A stretch of DNA of 64,000 bases from an uncultured Clostridia bacterium (GTDB lineage: Bacteria > Bacillota > Clostridia > Christensenellales > CAMQZB01): the NCBI GenBank assembly GCA_964406735.1, contig CAYOSU010000004.1, forward strand, positions 1,782 to 65,781, read 5' to 3'. The position numbers and the translations under genes are program-made. Shown here in pieces: positions 11,894-64,000 of the stretch. The notes beneath the pieces are model-generated. The model did no database searches. It was not told the origin of the DNA and saw only the letters and a list, made by a program, of their open reading frames with translations. How positions within the stretch are numbered: the stretch's first letter is position 1; each line of letters opens with the position of its first letter.

Positions 11894-12784
11894 ATGCGAT
11901 ACCTTTCGGTTGCCGAAATAGCAAAAAAATGGGATATTTCTGAACGAAGCGTAAGAAATTACTGTGCAAATGGGCGCGTGAACGGTGCGTTCCTTACGGG
12001 GAAAACTTGGAATATTCCCGAAAACGCAGAAAAACCCGAGCGAACTAACAAGAGGCACGAGAGCTTAGATAGGCTGTCAGACGTTCTGAGAATTCAGAAA
12101 GAAAGCAAATATTTCGGCGGCATTTACCACAAAACGCAGATAGAGCTTACGTATAACTCAAATCATATCGAAGGCAGCCGTTTAACGCACGATCAGACCA
12201 GATATATTTTTGAGACCAATACGGTCGGTGTTGAAAACGAAGTTCTCAACGTAGACGACGTAATTGAGACGGCAAATCATTTTCGTTGTATCGATATAAC
12301 AATCGAGAACGCTAAAACGGCACTGACTGAGAAATTCGTAAAGGAGCTTCATCTGACCTTAAAGAACGGTACGAGCGATTCACGAAAAAATTGGTTTGCC
12401 GTTGGTGCTTATAAAAAACTTCCGAACGAGGTCGGTGGAGTAAAGACTACTCTTCCTAAAGAAGTAGATTCACAAATGAAAGCGTTGATATCTCAATACA
12501 ACGAAAAAAAAGAAAAAACGCTTGAAGATATTTTAGACTTCCACGTGAAATTTGAACGTATACACCCCTTTCAGGACGGCAACGGCAGAGTTGGCAGGCT
12601 AATAATGTTCAAGGAATGTCTGAAACACGATATCGTACCGTTCATTATATACGATGACTTAAAGCTATTCTACTATCGCGGCTTGAAAGAGTGGGATAAT
12701 GAAAAAGGCTATTTGCTCGATACCTGCTTGACTGCGCAGGATAAATATAAAGCGTATCTTGACTATTTCAGGATAATTTATTAA
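11894..12784 (+). CDS. Fic-family protein (AMPylase type) with N-terminal HTH
   Basis: HPFQDGNGRVGR Fic motif; SNHIEG matches the inhibitory-helix motif (S/T)xxxE(G/N). N-terminus LSVAEIAKKWDISERSVRNYC is a MerR-like HTH. Confidence 0.9.
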   Translation: MRYLSVAEIAKKWDISERSVRNYCANGRVNGAFLTGKTWNIPENAEKPERTNKRHESLDRLSDVLRIQKESKYFGGIYHKTQIELTYNSNHIEGSRLTHDQTRYIFETNTVGVENEVLNVDDVIETANHFRCIDITIENAKTALTEKFVKELHLTLKNGTSDSRKNWFAVGAYKKLPNEVGGVKTTLPKEVDSQMKALISQYNEKKEKTLEDILDFHVKFERIHPFQDGNGRVGRLIMFKECLKHDIVPFIIYDDLKLFYYRGLKEWDNEKGYLLDTCLTAQDKYKAYLDYFRIIY

Positions 12785-12816
12785 GACACTTCATACTTCA
12801 AAGGAAGATAAAGCCA

Positions 12817-13272
12817 ATGAAAAAAGTACTTTTTGTGTGCCACGGGAATATATGCAGATCCCCGATGGCGGAATTTATGTTTAAAGCGCTCGTAAAAGAA
12901 AAAGGCGTTGAGGACGAGTTTGAGATAGCATCTGCCGCAACGAGCCGTGAGGAGATAGGAAACCCCGTTTATCCTCCTGCAAGGAGAGAGCTTGCAAGGC
13001 ACGGTATAGATCCGACGGGCAAGACTGCAAGACAGATGACGAGGGAAGATCTTGCGTATTTCGACGAAATAGTCTGCATGGACGGCAACAATCTCAGGAA
13101 TATTGAGCGTATGTTCGGCGAAGACGGAAAACGCAAGGTAAAAAAGCTGATGAGCTTTGCAGGAATTGACGCAGACGTCGCAGATCCTTGGTATACGGGC
13201 GATTTCGAGAGGACGTATCGGGACGTTTTGCTTGGCATAGAGGGACTATATAGCTACTTTTCAAAGCTGTGA
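12817..13272 (+). CDS. Low-molecular-weight protein tyrosine phosphatase
   Basis: VCHGNICRSPMAE P-loop (CX5R) and a DPWY... Asp loop. Confidence 0.9.
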   Translation: MKKVLFVCHGNICRSPMAEFMFKALVKEKGVEDEFEIASAATSREEIGNPVYPPARRELARHGIDPTGKTARQMTREDLAYFDEIVCMDGNNLRNIERMFGEDGKRKVKKLMSFAGIDADVADPWYTGDFERTYRDVLLGIEGLYSYFSKL

Positions 13273-13370
13273 GTAACTAATAGCGCAACTATCCTTGCAA
13301 AATAATTAAAATTGTGATAGACTTATTACGAAATAGATGCTAAAAAGATCTATCGATCTTGGAGGGTATT

Positions 13371-13718
13371 ATGGAAAAAAGAGATTCCAAAGGCAGAACG
13401 ACATATAACAACAATATTCTCACGAATATCGTAACGTTTGCCGTATCGGAAGTCGACGGTGTTGCGCCGAGCGTCAGAGAAGAGAACGCTCAGGTCCGCC
13501 CGGAGGACTATTTGCAGAAGATAAAGCTCGATTTCGACGGAGATAAGGTCTACGTCGACCTTTCGATCTATATTTACGAAGGCCACAACGTTCCCGACGT
13601 TGCGTTCAAGGTACAGGAGGCTGCGAAAGACGGCATAGAAAATATGACGTCATTTACGGCGAGCTCCGTTGACGTAAGAGTTTTGGGCGTAGTATTGAAG
13701 ACGGACAAAGCAAGATGA
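13371..13718 (+). CDS. Asp23/Gls24-family (alkaline shock) protein
   Basis: ATG 13371 after GGAGGG. ILTNIVTFAVSEVDGV and the later beta-rich pattern are typical of Asp23. Confidence 0.8.
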   Translation: MEKRDSKGRTTYNNNILTNIVTFAVSEVDGVAPSVREENAQVRPEDYLQKIKLDFDGDKVYVDLSIYIYEGHNVPDVAFKVQEAAKDGIENMTSFTASSVDVRVLGVVLKTDKAR

Positions 13719-14119
13719 GGAAAGACGCAAGAGAAACAGCTTTCAGGCTGATATACGGCTATCTTTTCGACGAGTCGAAGACCGATAGCTTAGAGGAGAG
13801 ATTGACGTCCTTTGACGACGTAACGCTCGACGAAGAGGACAAAGTTTACGTCAAGGACGTATTCGAGGGCGTAGAAGAAAATCAGGCAACGCTCAAGGAG
13901 CTGGTCGAGAAGAATGCGATCGGCTATAAGCTCGACAGAGTCTACATGGTAGATCTGGCGATCCTTTTGGTTGCCCTTTATGAGATAAAATACCGTGATG
14001 ATATTCCCGAAAAGGTCTCGTGCAACGAAGCGGTCGAGCTTGCGAAAAAGTACAGCACCGAGAAGAGCCCGAGCTTTATCAACGGAATTTTGGCAAGCGT
14101 ATTAAAGGAAAGCAAATGA
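13715..14119 (+). CDS. nusB: Transcription antitermination factor NusB
   Basis: ARE.AF..IY start, AILLVALYEI, VSCNEAVELAKKYS and FINGIL. ATGA overlap with the asp23-like gene. Confidence 0.85.
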   Translation: MRKDARETAFRLIYGYLFDESKTDSLEERLTSFDDVTLDEEDKVYVKDVFEGVEENQATLKELVEKNAIGYKLDRVYMVDLAILLVALYEIKYRDDIPEKVSCNEAVELAKKYSTEKSPSFINGILASVLKESK

Positions 14120-14952
14120 TAATAGACGGAAAGCAGATCGCAGATAATATCAAAGATAACGTAAGGAAGGAAGTCGCCGCGCTGAACGAGCAGGGCGTGT
14201 TTCCTTCCCTTTCTGTAATTGTAGTAGGCAACGACCCCGCGAGCGAGGTATATGTCAGGAACAAGGCCCGTGCGTGCGAAAAGGCAGGGATAGTATCCAA
14301 CACCTACAAGCTTCCCGAGGATTCTACGACGGACGACGTTGTGGAGCTTGTGGAGGCGTTGAACGATGATGACAAGGTGCACGGAATTTTAGTGCAGCTT
14401 CCCCTTCCGAAAGGTATCGACGAAGAAAGAGTCATCGCCGCAGTATCTCCCGAAAAGGATGTAGACGGATTTTCCGTGGCTTCGTCTGGTAGCCTGTATT
14501 TAGGCAAAAAAGCGGGATTTACGCCTTGCACGGCGGCAGGCGTGATAGACCTTATCAAGTCGACCGGCGTTGATATATCGGGCAAGAATGCCGTTGTAAT
14601 AGGCCGCTCCGACATAGTCGGCAAGCCCGTTGCCATGCTTTTGATGAGAGAGAATGCGACCGTAACCGTATGCCATTCGAGGACGAAGGATATAGCCGAG
14701 CACACAAGACGTGCAGATATTATAGTCGCTGCCGTCGGAAGAAAGCATTTCGTGACCGACGATATGGTAAAAGACGGCGCAATAGTCATCGACGTAGGCA
14801 TAAACCGCGTTGACGGCAAGCTTTACGGCGACGTAGACTACGAGAACGTCTCGAAGAAAGCGTCCTATATAACCCCCGTTCCGGGAGGCGTAGGACCGAT
14901 GACGATAGCAAAGCTTCTTGAAAACACGGTAAAGGCGGCCAAGGAGAGATAA
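14116..14952 (+). CDS. folD: Bifunctional methylenetetrahydrofolate dehydrogenase/cyclohydrolase
   Basis: MIIDGKQIA start (ATGA overlap with nusB), VVGNDPASEVYVRNK, GILVQLPLP, PCTAAGV, VIGRSDIVGKP, PVPGGVGPMT. Confidence 0.9.
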   Translation: MIIDGKQIADNIKDNVRKEVAALNEQGVFPSLSVIVVGNDPASEVYVRNKARACEKAGIVSNTYKLPEDSTTDDVVELVEALNDDDKVHGILVQLPLPKGIDEERVIAAVSPEKDVDGFSVASSGSLYLGKKAGFTPCTAAGVIDLIKSTGVDISGKNAVVIGRSDIVGKPVAMLLMRENATVTVCHSRTKDIAEHTRRADIIVAAVGRKHFVTDDMVKDGAIVIDVGINRVDGKLYGDVDYENVSKKASYITPVPGGVGPMTIAKLLENTVKAAKER

Positions 14953-17219: not shown

Positions 17220-17237
17220 ACAAAAAAGAAATTATGA

Positions 17238-17264
17238 GCGCACCTTGCAATAAGGTGCGTTTTA
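17238..17264 (+). terminator. Rho-independent terminator after ispA
   Basis: GCGCACCTT / AAGGTGCG followed by a T-run. Confidence 0.7.
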
Positions 17265-17315
17265 TTTATAAAAATGTGATTTTTGTGTGCAAAAAGGCAA
17301 TATTATAAAAATTGC

Positions 17316-17344
17316 TTGATATTTGAAAATAAATATGCTATTAT
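17316..17344 (+). promoter_or_regulatory. Sigma-A type promoter of the large ncRNA
   Basis: TTGATA (17316-17321), 17-nt spacer, TGcTATTAT (-10 at 17339-17344). Confidence 0.55.
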
Positions 17345-17349
17345 TACAT

Positions 17350-17992
17350 TCCATAGGTGGTGCAGTATTCTAGTCGGATTTCCGCATTCTGAAAACGGGG
17401 TTAAAAGACCGTAGCGGGCATATCGATGAAGTTTCTGGTGCATGCTTCCGTTGCCCAAACGGGGGTGTGTGCTGGAAGATAAGGTCTATGGGCGTTCCGT
17501 AACGGCATACGGAGAGCGACCCATTTACCGCGGAGGCTCAAATACGTGGAGAAGATTAAGTTCACGCTCTACGGTTTGAGATTAAACCTGCAATGTGGCA
17601 ACAAAACGCTATGTGCAGTGTAGCCTGCCTTGAGTGGACGGTGTGGATCAGGGAACAACGAATAAGTTAAGGCCATTAACGAAAGCGATCGCTCTGTGAA
17701 ACACACATCTGCAAAAGAGGCTGGGAATGTGGGGATCTGTCAATGAAAGATTCTAGGCTGTGCGGAGAACCGCTTATGCGTATCTGGGATTAAAGTGTGG
17801 TCTTAGTGGCGATTCAGTTGTGCGTTTGGCGACAGCGCACCGCCCTGTTTGAACGGAAACGGCTCCTGCGGTGACGGGGAGTACAGCGTGCGGAGAAACT
17901 CTACTGAACCTTATGCCGCAAAGTTTACTGGATGCGCAACCACCTCAATCGAAATTATCAAGGCGATGGGTCAGCCCACCGCCTTGTTTTTT
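17350..17992 (+). ncRNA. Large structured non-coding RNA, OLE (ornate large extremophilic) RNA candidate
   Basis: No credible ORF. Own promoter and terminator (17962-17992). Closing helix 17356-17363 / 17936-17944 and many internal hairpins. Diagnostic synteny: ispA upstream; a 4-TM protein, tlyA, nadK, argR and recN downstream. Confidence 0.7.
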
Positions 17993-18030
17993 AAGAAAAT
18001 ATCAAGAAAGAGTAAAGGAGTAAAAGAAAA

Positions 18031-18738
18031 ATGGAAGAAATTCCCCGAAGTAGCGAGCAATACGATTACGAGTTCCCCGACGATTATACGCTCGGGCAAG
18101 AAGAGATCGTGATGATCACCCCTAAGGAGAAAAAGCAAGAGGAAGAAAAGTCCGAAAAGCCTCGCAAAACGCAAAAAAAGCCTGAAAAAAAGAACGCAGA
18201 GGAGAAAAAAGCGCTCGAAAAGCGCAAAAACGTCCGTTGGGTAATAAGGACGTTCCTTTTAACTCTTGTCCTGTCGTCGATATTTTTGATCATAACCGAG
18301 CAGGTGTCCGAGAAAGGCAACTTAGTACTGTCTCTCGTTTTGCTGGTGCTTCTCATTATGATAGGTATACTTTTCGATATGGTCGGAACTGCAACGGCGT
18401 CGGCAGACATTGAACCCTTCGTATCTAAGGCGGCGAGAAAGGACAAGTCTGCTATGATGGCGATAAAGATACTCCAGAACGCAGAAAAGGTATCGAGCTT
18501 TTGCAACGACATCGTCGGCGACATCTGCGGCGTAGTGTCGGGCGGATGCGCCTCGTCGATAGTAATAATCCTCTTAAACAACTTCACGTTGAACAATTTC
18601 GTAGTGTCCGTTGCGCTTTCTGCGTGCGTTTCCGCAATGACCGTAGGCGGCAAGGCGATAGGCAAGACGTTCAGCATGAAGAACAGCCACGAGATAATAG
18701 CGTTGGTCGGAAAAGTAGCTTCCGTTTTCAAGAAATAA
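18031..18738 (+). CDS. oapA: Four-TM membrane protein in the OapA (OLE-associated protein A) position, with a K/E-rich N-terminal tail
   Basis: AAAGGAG RBS. About 70 aa of low-complexity charged N-terminus, then hydrophobic segments WVIRTFLLTLVLSSIFLII, LVLSLVLLVLLIMIGILFDMVG, ICGVVSGGCASSIVIILL and FVVSVALSACVSAMTVGG. The assignment rests mainly on position next to the RNA. Confidence 0.55.
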   Translation: MEEIPRSSEQYDYEFPDDYTLGQEEIVMITPKEKKQEEEKSEKPRKTQKKPEKKNAEEKKALEKRKNVRWVIRTFLLTLVLSSIFLIITEQVSEKGNLVLSLVLLVLLIMIGILFDMVGTATASADIEPFVSKAARKDKSAMMAIKILQNAEKVSSFCNDIVGDICGVVSGGCASSIVIILLNNFTLNNFVVSVALSACVSAMTVGGKAIGKTFSMKNSHEIIALVGKVASVFKK

Positions 18739-18741
18739 GCC

Positions 18742-19500
18742 ATGCGCCTTGATGTATATTTAGCAAACGACCCTTCCGTCAGATCGAGGACGAAGGCCAA
18801 AGAGATGATAGAAAAAGGTCTCGTAACGGTCAACGGCAAAACGGCAACCAAGCCGTCAGAGGATGTGACCGAACGGGATGAAGTCGTCATAACGGAAAAA
18901 CTCAAGTACGTTTCAAAGGGCGGCGATAAGCTCGAAAGGGCGATCACCGCTTTTTCTTACGACCCGACGGGCAAGGTGTTTATCGACGTAGGCGCAAGCA
19001 ACGGCGGCTTTACCGATTGCCTTCTTCAATACGGCGCAAGCAAGGTGTATTGCGTAGACGTCGGCGAGGGACAGCTCGACGAGAGAATAAAAAGCGATAG
19101 CCGCATAGTCGTTATGGATAACACCAACGGCAGGGACTTGAAAAAAGAGATGTTTGCGGAAAGCCCGATATACGCCGTTTCCGACGTTTCGTTCATTTCC
19201 GTAGAATTGATAATACCGCCGCTTTCCGAGATAGTAGAGGAGATGCTGCTCCTTATCAAGCCGCAATTTATCTGCGGCAGAAAGGCGCTTAACAAAAGCG
19301 GCATAGTAACGAGCGAAAAGGATAGATTAACTGCAGTTTTGAAAGTCAACGCCGCTCTTTCCCAAAACGGATTTCACACAAACGGCTTGACGGTCGGAGC
19401 GAGCGGAAAGAATAAGAACACCGAATACGTCTGCCTTGCGACCAAAAAAGAGGGCTACAGCGAGGAAGAAATTACTGCGATATTTGAGAAATTGCAATAA
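18742..19500 (+). CDS. tlyA: TlyA-family rRNA 2'-O-methyltransferase (S4 domain + FtsJ-like)
   Basis: MRLDVYL....S.RSR.KA..MI..G.V.VNG (S4 domain) and DVGASNGGFTDCLLQ.GA..VY.VDVG (SAM site). Confidence 0.85.
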   Translation: MRLDVYLANDPSVRSRTKAKEMIEKGLVTVNGKTATKPSEDVTERDEVVITEKLKYVSKGGDKLERAITAFSYDPTGKVFIDVGASNGGFTDCLLQYGASKVYCVDVGEGQLDERIKSDSRIVVMDNTNGRDLKKEMFAESPIYAVSDVSFISVELIIPPLSEIVEEMLLLIKPQFICGRKALNKSGIVTSEKDRLTAVLKVNAALSQNGFHTNGLTVGASGKNKNTEYVCLATKKEGYSEEEITAIFEKLQ

Positions 19501-63616: not shown

Positions 63617-63638
63617 AAAGGTATCAATTGAATATTTG

Positions 63639-63704
63639 CCAATATATCTATAGATGATACGGTCTGTAAGTTTCTACCGCAACGCCATAAGTTGCGACTA
63701 TTGG
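63639..63704 (+). promoter_or_regulatory. Purine riboswitch aptamer, guanine/hypoxanthine-specific type (C at the specificity position)
   Basis: P1 CCAATA/TATTGG. P2 TATAGA-TGATACGG-TCTGTA. J2/3 AGTTTCTACC. P3 GCAAC-GCCATAA-GTTGC. J3/1 GACT. Near-identical core to B. subtilis xpt (GGAUAUGG...AAGUUUCUACC...CCGUAAAU...GACUAUGG). Confidence 0.85.
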
Positions 63705-63813
63705 GAAAATATCGTTTGTCCGACGAGGGCATTCATATTTATTTTCTTCGGAAGAGTGCTTTCCGCTTTTGGGAAATTGGGAAAGAGAGCTCTCCGTCAA
63801 GGTGTTTTGGCAG

Positions 63814-63881: not shown

Positions 63882-64000
63882 ATGAAGATGCTCGAAGAGA
63901 AGATTTTAACAGAAGGAAAGGTGCTTGAGGGCGGCAAGATTCTGAAAGTAGACGGCTTTTTGAATCACCAGCTCGACGTAAAGCTCTTGTCCTGCCTTGG
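63882..64000 (+). CDS. xpt: Xanthine phosphoribosyltransferase (5' part; runs off the right edge)
   Basis: [36 protein letters not shown] compares with B. subtilis Xpt [31 protein letters not shown]. Confidence 0.85.

Follow-up and report, generated by a model that had tools for sequence, protein, structure and literature searches.

A full-length OLE RNA gene directly upstream of oapA in an uncultured Clostridia bacterium

Identification of the OLE RNA

The stretch of DNA analysed here in its full length of 64,000 nucleotides (nt), hereafter the window, is from an uncultured Clostridia bacterium (GenBank assembly GCA_964406735.1, contig CAYOSU010000004.1, positions 1,782 to 65,781 of the forward strand). 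Between ispA and the gene for a small membrane protein, window positions 17355-17945 (+) almost certainly hold a gene for OLE (ornate, large, extremophilic) RNA that is full-length and functional in this Clostridia-type organism, with oapA lying directly 3' of it. Foremost as evidence is the Rfam covariance model of OLE (RF01071), which matches 17341-17959 (+) with 428.1 bits (E 2.4e-122; gathering cut-off 50 bits) and spans model positions 1-616 of 616 without truncation; we regard this end-to-end match as decisive for the identity of the RNA. When all Rfam families were scanned over the whole window at their curated thresholds, just two matches reached the gathering threshold, namely OLE and a purine riboswitch. 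A first-pass annotation, made from the sequence alone, had already called the gap a candidate for an OLE-class RNA and had proposed the OLE covariance model and compensatory covariation in relatives as checks on this. The model is indeed matched significantly from its first position to its last, covariation is found in an alignment with 110 other OLE RNAs, and an OapA homologue is encoded downstream, all of which bears out the call. None of the evidence contradicts the identification as OLE.

In size, the OLE core of the window (598 nt against a family median of 594) is typical, as are the spans of P7 (49 nt, median 47), P8 (29 nt, median 29), and P9 (75 nt, median 79), which places it with the full-length type and with neither of the two reduced variants described for this family. 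The hosts described for OLE are Bacillota, namely anaerobes and/or extremophiles. Among the matches listed, the nearest OLE RNAs have 66-67% identity and are in Caldicoprobacter, Clostridiales, and Christensenellales records, while identical or near-identical contigs are found in metagenome assemblies only, and an OapA 59% identical to that of the window carries the label 'Clostridia bacterium'. The window RNA diverges somewhat from other OLE RNAs but belongs to this described family and does not represent a new kind of RNA. The first-pass annotation overstated its worth as a copy of a rare RNA, since 2,822 OLE hits have been reported in GTDB Bacillota (Fernando and Breaker 2024), and our scan with a single pattern recovered at least 120 loci. 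Descriptions already exist of the class and thousands of its members, of the genomic context and the partner protein, and also of the OLE ribonucleoprotein (RNP) particle, its binding sites, dimer contacts, and phenotypes (PMC11332333, PMC12265935, PMC9723947, PMC7936274, PMC12054373), and a standard Rfam scan detects the window copy at once. OLE is among the largest conserved bacterial RNAs without a known biochemical function, and each divergent full-length copy adds some comparative information. Here, this consists of natural compensatory mutations at two near-invariant base pairs, a promoter and a terminator dedicated to the RNA, and the unusual, charged N-terminus of OapA. The copy neither opens a new question nor makes an existing one easier to test.

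Covariation and sequence conservation

For the comparison set, one genome per species was scanned for a 19-nt conserved OLE motif. The OLE RNAs were delimited by an nhmmer profile, and the window sequence was aligned with 110 full-length OLE RNAs from Bacilli and Clostridia using MAFFT; all family counts in this section are for these sequences, which are among the matches listed, and the 19 nt of the search pattern are invariant in them by construction. Of the cells in this alignment of 111 sequences, 85.5% pair, compared with 41-44% once the 3' partners have been slid along by 1-3 columns, and at 135 of the 157 consensus pairs both sides have changed. Covariation scores 0.489, compared with 0.11-0.13 in the controls, and none of 500 shuffles reaches the observed value. 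For P1, P2, and P3 taken together, 88.6% of cells are paired (35-51% when slid), with covariation at 15 of the 16 P3 pairs and at the two outer pairs of P1; P2 shows none because the helix is invariant, its 5' side being fixed by the search pattern. Helices 8, 11, 15-17, and 19, which are the length-variable tips of P7, distal P9, and P11, are only 38-49% paired, a low value that we ascribe to misalignment of the length-variable loops by MAFFT and that has no bearing on these stems either way.

A described trait of OLE is that some 25% of its nucleotides are conserved to over 97%. When set against the 110 other OLE RNAs, the window has the family nucleotide at 205 of the 216 columns conserved to at least 90% and at 156 of the 160 columns conserved to at least 97%. 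Two compensatory swaps, each with both its sides, account for four of the 11 departures, among them all four at the more stringent level. One swap is in P10, where pair 17744/17750 is U-A in the window against G-C in 107 of the 111 sequences, and the other is in a short P15-like pairing, where 17894/17900 is A-U against G-C in all 110 others; the neighbouring pair 17893/17901 covaries as well (GC in 107, UA in 3), and the two P15-like pairs together count only 3+1 double changes in this sample. Swaps on both sides of near-invariant pairs are a signature of selection acting on structure.

Close relatives of the window locus (L123, L124, L127, and L128), which share its gene order, were recovered through the OapA protein. 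Here, the OLE RNA is 97.8% (L123), 94.4% (L127), and 92.9% (L128) identical in nucleotides to that of the window, whereas ispA, oapA, and tlyA of the same three loci are 68-81% identical, and the spacer upstream of the promoter is 53-67% identical. The window OLE is thus under purifying selection, and where an RNA is conserved far beyond the coding genes around it and its substitutions preserve pairing, it is a functional RNA rather than a relic. As a separate observation, the closest named relative (L123:1818-2435, GCA_964541255.1) has GGAGGUG in place of GGUGGUG in the P1 5' strand, which gives a mismatch in P1 and means that the 19-nt DNA pattern would have missed this locus.

Secondary structure

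Projected on the window, the Rfam structure forms 139 of its 157 consensus pairs as Watson-Crick or G-U. Moreover, the minimum free energy of the RNA is -220.8 kcal/mol (z -4.9 against shuffles), and the single-sequence fold regains P1-P3 and P5. Both results agree with the highly structured RNA that had been proposed for this gap. Judging from its sequence, the window RNA can form the whole published structure, P1-P15 (Table 1). This includes P1, P2, and P3, three helices that the published model has and the Rfam model lacks, and all three are present in the window. P2 holds a CUAG palindrome close to one of two OapA sites that have been mapped, as these are located in a review, and P3/P3.1 in the published model joins domains 1 and 2, with a membrane-spanning role proposed for it.

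The closing helix of the first-pass annotation is real and equals P1, though the 'GC' and 'GCA' by which it was extended belong to P2 and P12. Of the local hairpins in the same annotation, 17489-17523 corresponds to inner P6 with P6.1 and 17808-17844 roughly to P13, while 17545-17566 takes in only the tip of P7, and 17573-17588 lies outside the consensus structure.

Table 1. Coordinates of the OLE RNA, its structural elements, the flanking transcription signals, and oapA in the window
Feature	Position	Strand	Details
ispA intrinsic terminator	17236-17272	+	hairpin 17236-17262, then T-rich tail; found by scan; -15.9 kcal/mol, z -4.65
Sigma-A-type promoter, extended -10 (predicted)	17316-17344	+	TTGATA, 17 nt, TGcTATTAT; 10/12 matches plus TG
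OLE RNA gene	17341-17959 by RF01071; structured core P1-P1' 17355-17945	+	covariance-model match, 139/157 pairs, covariation
P1 5' strand AGGUGGU	17355-17361, with ACCACCU 17939-17945	+	outer two pairs covary: GC/AU/UA/CG and GC/AU
P2 5' strand GCAGU..CUAG	17362-17373, with 17753-17761	+	99.5-100% paired, invariant
P3/P3.1 5' strand	17375-17390, with 17724-17739	+	16 contiguous pairs, 15/16 changed on both sides across the family
P4 hairpin	17394-17413	+	A-rich loop GUUAAAAG (invariant UAAA); dimerisation centre 1
J4a/5, P5/P5.1, J5/6, start of P6	17423-17484	+	P5/P5.1 20 bp, 20/20 pairs form; loop GCCCA 17453-17457
P6/P6.1	17483-17529	+	P6.1 loop AACGGCAU 17502-17507; two mismatches in outer P6
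P7 and P8	P7 17537-17580; P8 17588-17618	+	both of typical size
P9 long arm	17627-17721	+	palindromic GGCC loop 17671-17674; dimerisation centre 4
P10, P2 3' strand, P11	17742-17744/17750-17752; 17753-17761; 17762-17765/17770-17773	+	
Domain-2 3' half	17777-17938	+	helices 20-25 paired 88-99.8% in the family alignment
P12/P12.1/P12.2	17777-17818, with 17903-17938	+	
P13, putative OapB site	17820-17840	+	bulged U 17825, GCGA tetraloop 17829-17832
P14 and P14.1	within 17777-17938	+	P14.1 GUGA loop 17871-17874
Short P15-like pairing	17893-17895, with 17899-17901	+	pairing without annotation in the Rfam model
OLE intrinsic terminator	17959-17992	+	AAGGCGAUGGG-UCAG-CCCACCGCCUU plus UGUUUUUU; -17.9 kcal/mol, z -5.26
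oapA	ribosome-binding site AAGGAG 18017-18022; coding sequence 18031-18738	+	235 aa; four hydrophobic segments, CNNM-like fold

Protein-binding and dimerisation elements

In published work, the determinants of OapB binding are the P13 hairpin, a GNRA tetraloop, and one nucleotide that bulges from the stem (PMC7936274). The window P13 (GUGCG-U-UUG-GCGA-CAGCGCAC) has both the GNRA tetraloop and the one-nt bulge, and the putative OapB determinants are thereby present. Likewise, the nucleotides of the putative OapC k-turn as previously defined (PMC9723947), UCGAUGAAG (17423-17431) and UAAGG (17480-17484), which flank P5, are identical to the family consensus, and the pair C17424-G17483 can form; the departure in this vicinity is a change of U to A at 17479. 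According to a summary of the cryo-EM structures (PMC12265935), the loops of P4, P5.1/P6.1, and P9 have roles in dimerisation. All four putative dimer contacts are found in the window, these being the A-rich P4 loop GUUAAAAG, the complementary UGCC of P5.1 and GGCA of P6.1, and the GGCC palindrome of P9.

Locus layout and transcription signals

The gene order in the window is nusB-folD-xseA-xseB-ispA-[RNA]-membrane protein-tlyA-nadK-argR-recN, just as the first-pass annotation had listed it, and its statement that the gap contains no credible open reading frame (ORF) holds equally well. In any frame of 17341-17959, the longest open stretch is 56 codons, and there are 7-11 stops per frame. The ORF at 17849-18112 (87 aa), which had been dismissed for want of a ribosome-binding site and for running through a terminator, does lack such a site; it crosses the terminator and runs on into oapA in another frame, and in the relatives L127 and L128, stop codons break it. 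The GC content of the RNA (0.509) also exceeds that of the flanking spacers (0.252 and 0.365), as had been noted before.

Upstream, the intrinsic terminator of ispA sets the OLE transcription unit apart from ispA. The sigma-A-type promoter assigned in the first-pass annotation is retained here, and its extended -10 is kept in L123, L124, and L127, whereas the spacer upstream of it diverges; transcription would be expected to start at about 17350-17353. Downstream, the strong terminator that had been proposed to end the RNA is also recovered (Table 1), with a hairpin at 17959-17986 that runs into the U-run UUGUUUUUU. This hairpin and its internal A.C mismatch are kept in the window and in L123, L124, L127, and L128 (five of five), and it is this single mismatch that caused a simple terminator scan to miss it. 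The mismatch could weaken termination and permit read-through into oapA. A terminator-like hairpin follows OLE in 34 of 106 loci among the matches listed, and at about a third of the loci sampled, such a layout as in the window is common.

With regard to the genes upstream, an Asp23-family (YqhY-like) gene is located at 13359-13718 (+), just 5' of nusB (Pfam PF03780, E 8e-15; no match in NCBIfam), and yqhY is named in the OLE literature among the genes commonest near ole. The mechanically called folD ORF (14020-14952 (+)) opens with a GTG at 14020 and overlaps nusB by 100 nt; its Pfam match starts at residue 35, from which the true start probably lies some 100 nt downstream of 14020. Further 5' of the Asp23-nusB cluster, 11894-13272 (+) encodes a Fic-domain protein (weak NCBIfam matches) and a low-molecular-weight phosphatase/ArsC-like protein.

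The downstream protein OapA

The four-transmembrane (TM) protein that the first-pass annotation had placed after the RNA is an OapA homologue, and its four hydrophobic segments are found at residues ~70-90, 97-120, 161-183, and 187-205. Among the matches listed, a homologue of this 235-aa protein follows OLE on the same strand at 100 of 110 loci, the median offset being 79 nt. Of the ten loci where it is missing, six have too little downstream sequence, and the other four (L085, L120, L008, and L016) have a putative dxs-like gene after OLE. The N-terminus of the ORF at these four loci, ..LAEEIR.F.IEKLS.TGGHL..NLGVVELTLALH, looks like that of Dxs. The downstream protein is OapA, an assignment that is based on synteny across the 100 loci (Bacillaceae and Clostridium included) and not on direct comparison with a characterised protein.

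As for fold, the AlphaFold2 model of OapA has long helices at residues 53-94, 98-124, 151-183, and 187-217, where the predicted local distance difference test (pLDDT) score is 80-91, against 75.7 overall. A Foldseek search with this model gave as its sole credible matches the archaeal CNNM protein MtCorB (PDB IDs: 7m1t and 7m1u), with probability 1.00, E 0.013-0.34, and TMq 0.40-0.46 over ~140 columns. At a relaxed E-value, PF01595 (CNNM/DUF21) matches OapA with E 0.0029 and 17.7 bits, below its cut-off of 28.4, and some of the 1777 homologues of the window OapA carry PF01595. At default thresholds, no NCBIfam or Pfam family was assigned to the 235-aa protein, and a sequence search of the PDB with OapA gave no match. 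A sub-threshold BSMAP match was rejected as spurious. In the loop between TM2 and TM3 (SKAARKDKSAMMAIK), positive charges are conserved, and across 43 homologues K137 does not vary and R136 hardly does; a cluster of positive charge on this loop is a described feature of OapA.

More unusual is the N-terminus of the protein. Residues 1-68 (18031-18234) include a disordered, K/E-rich extension of ~65 aa with 14 K and 15 E and a pLDDT below 50. This extension is absent from typical OapA homologues (190-205 aa) and is covered only by the closest ones (roughly at least 44% identity, 231-263 aa). From the four-helix topology and the cytoplasmic TM2-TM3 loop, the extension is predicted to be cytoplasmic. 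On the opposite strand, a 287-aa ORF (18084-18947 (-)) is longer than oapA or tlyA and was preferred to both by a greedy longest-ORF map, but given the 1777 OapA homologues and the family match of TlyA, we rejected it as an artefact.

Alternative explanations

Several observations weigh against our assignment of a functional full-length OLE RNA, or against parts of the account that we attach to it. The Rfam score of 428 bits is lower than the 516-554 bits of four other OLE RNAs, and to this extent the 'divergent copy' of the first-pass annotation is apt, though the divergence is only moderate and the type is the standard full-length one. Eighteen of the 157 consensus pairs are unformed, mostly in outer P6, P7, and distal P9. 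The 3' shoulder of P6 (CCCAUUUACC) lacks CCUCC, the mimic of the anti-Shine-Dalgarno (anti-SD) sequence that is reported to be the bS21-binding feature of the Halalkalibacterium halodurans OLE, and the interaction with bS21 may therefore not be conserved in the window organism; the outer shoulder region of P6 (helix 3) is poorly conserved across the family anyway. Neither OapB (KOW) nor OapC (L7Ae) was found among the 20 small ORFs of the window, a result that is silent on the rest of the genome. What is said here of transcript ends, abundance, processing, and terminator read-through is predicted from the DNA, and the mechanism proposed below draws on homology and on a model that is still debated.

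Part of this evidence would also suit a decaying, non-functional OLE relic, to which the lower Rfam score, the 18 unformed consensus pairs, and the 11 departures at columns conserved to at least 90% could be attributed, and for which the literature offers a precedent in rare defective ole genes from genomes without oapA. In the window, by contrast, an intact oapA adjoins the RNA, relatives have 93-98% identity in OLE as against 68-81% in the flanking genes, and four of those 11 departures are accounted for by the two compensatory swaps (17744/17750, G-C to U-A; 17894/17900, G-C to A-U), so that we hold decay to be highly improbable. More consideration is due to the idea that the region acts chiefly in cis as a leader of oapA, with a very long structured 5' untranslated region and the terminator serving as a regulated attenuator. 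OLE, terminator, ribosome-binding site, and oapA are in fact contiguous, 17992-18031 leaves no room for a promoter, the terminator retains its conserved A.C mismatch, and a terminator-like hairpin occupies the same place in those 34 of 106 loci. Yet in H. halodurans, OLE is an abundant stable RNA in a particle with OapA, OapB, and OapC, and co-transcription fits an RNA of this kind equally well. A structure of 590 nt with covariation throughout and conservation across Bacillota goes far beyond the needs of an attenuator, and at four loci with complete downstream sequence it is a dxs-like gene, not oapA, that follows OLE, which shows that the RNA is not tied to a role as oapA leader. We consider a leader as the main function very unlikely.

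Still less can be said for protein coding, whether by the 87-aa ORF at 17849-18112 or by another of the mechanical ORFs of 43-87 aa present in the region. Against these stand the stops in every frame, the defects of the 87-aa ORF described above, and the substitutions between relatives, which keep base pairs rather than codons, and the chance that the region is coding appears minute. The fallback offered in the first-pass annotation, a different and new large RNA in the ispA-oapA slot, has only the position in its favour and is refuted by the full-length RF01071 match and by agreement at 156 of 160 near-invariant OLE positions; of all the alternatives, it is the one to which we give practically no credence. 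The OLE RNA itself being accepted, the lineage of the window may conceivably have a particle of a separate sub-type, in which the RNA-protein interface is altered and the OapA extension replaces or adds a contact between protein and RNA. The features cited for this are the clade-specific extension, the lost anti-SD mimic in P6, the 16-bp P3/P3.1, the compensatory swaps, and a score lower by ~100 bits, and we view it as a speculative suggestion that is probably wrong.

Proposed mechanism

Based on its flanking signals, the OLE RNA would have a sigma-A promoter to itself, one with an extended -10, and would be transcribed from there over ~640 nt up to the intrinsic terminator. With no space for a promoter between terminator and coding sequence, oapA is probably expressed through read-through of the OLE terminator, and the RNA would then probably be in large excess over the mRNA. 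By analogy with experiments in H. halodurans and with cryo-EM of clostridial OLE RNAs, which provide the homology basis of this mechanism, the RNA may dimerise, be bound by OapA, and be taken by it to the cell membrane, which it would possibly span. Stresses under which the resulting particle might help the cell include cold and an excess of Mg2+ as well as short-chain alcohols and poor carbon sources. The likeliest route for this would be a modulated divalent-cation transport activity of the CNNM-like OapA, as in a model still under debate.

Comparison with related systems

Compared with the OLE RNP of H. halodurans, in which OLE is an abundant stable RNA, the window shares an RNA of ~600 nt with the P1-P15 architecture, oapA directly downstream, the P13 GNRA tetraloop with one bulged nucleotide, and the k-turn nucleotides of J4a/5 and J5/6. 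The neighbourhood of ispA, xseA/B, folD, nusB, tlyA, nadK, argR, and recN is likewise common to both. There are also differences. The H. halodurans cluster is reported to be polycistronic with OLE processed out of it, whereas OLE in the window is bracketed by the ispA terminator, a promoter, and a terminator of its own. Moreover, the P13 and P14.1 loops are GCGA and GUGA in the window and reversed in H. halodurans, both being GNRA, and the window differs further by a P6 3' shoulder (CCCAUUUACC) without CCUCC and by the extra K/E-rich N-terminus of OapA. For OLE from Clostridium acetobutylicum and C. botulinum, cryo-EM structures of the dimers are available (Kretsch et al. 2025, Wang et al. 2025; PMC12265935). 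With these, to the extent that they are described in the summary, the window has in common the P4 loop UAAAA, the UGCC/GGCA complementarity, the GGCC loop of P9, and a long P3/P3.1, which in the window amounts to 16 contiguous pairs as opposed to the typical sum of 12 bp given there.

Conserved core nucleotides and a partner oapA are also what the window has in common with the reduced variants 1 (TANB77 clade) and 2 (RF39 clade). In variant 1, however, P7-P9 are shortened and the OapB site is often missing, and variant 2 is without P7 and P8 (Fernando and Breaker 2024), whereas the window has P7-P9 of about median length, including both arms lacking in variant 2, and an intact P13. For the protein, OapA has been viewed as a distant relative of CNNM, and it resembles the CNNM/DUF21 Mg2+ transporters (MpfA, CorB/CorC) in its transmembrane fold, but it lacks their CBS pair and CorC/HlyC domain, and transport is a putative activity for every OapA. 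The large RNAs GOLLD, ROOL, and raiA are similarly large, highly structured, and conserved non-coding RNAs, some of which multimerise, though none has an Rfam match anywhere in the window at the gathering threshold.

Additional observations

Two OLE copies elsewhere were also noted. One, from the Clostridia metagenome-assembled genome (MAG) RGIG4708 of roe deer rectum (L111:3875-4719), is 845 nt in length with an insertion of 241 nt at the position of P7. This insertion folds very stably into an extended structure (-101 kcal/mol for 271 nt, z -8.1), and even with it the complete RNA reaches 468 bits with the Rfam OLE model. The other is an OLE RNA with 532 bits in a MAG labelled Deltaproteobacteria (L068:3536-4160). 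Cases of OLE outside Bacillota have been remarked upon in the literature as probable binning errors or transfers, with which this copy is consistent.

The second Rfam match in the window, the purine riboswitch aptamer RF00167 at 63620-63720 (+), scores 51 bits against a gathering threshold of 37 and is unrelated to OLE. Some 160 nt 3' of it, an ORF begins at 63883 and extends past the end of the window; it is a candidate for xanthine phosphoribosyltransferase (xpt), a classic target of such riboswitches.

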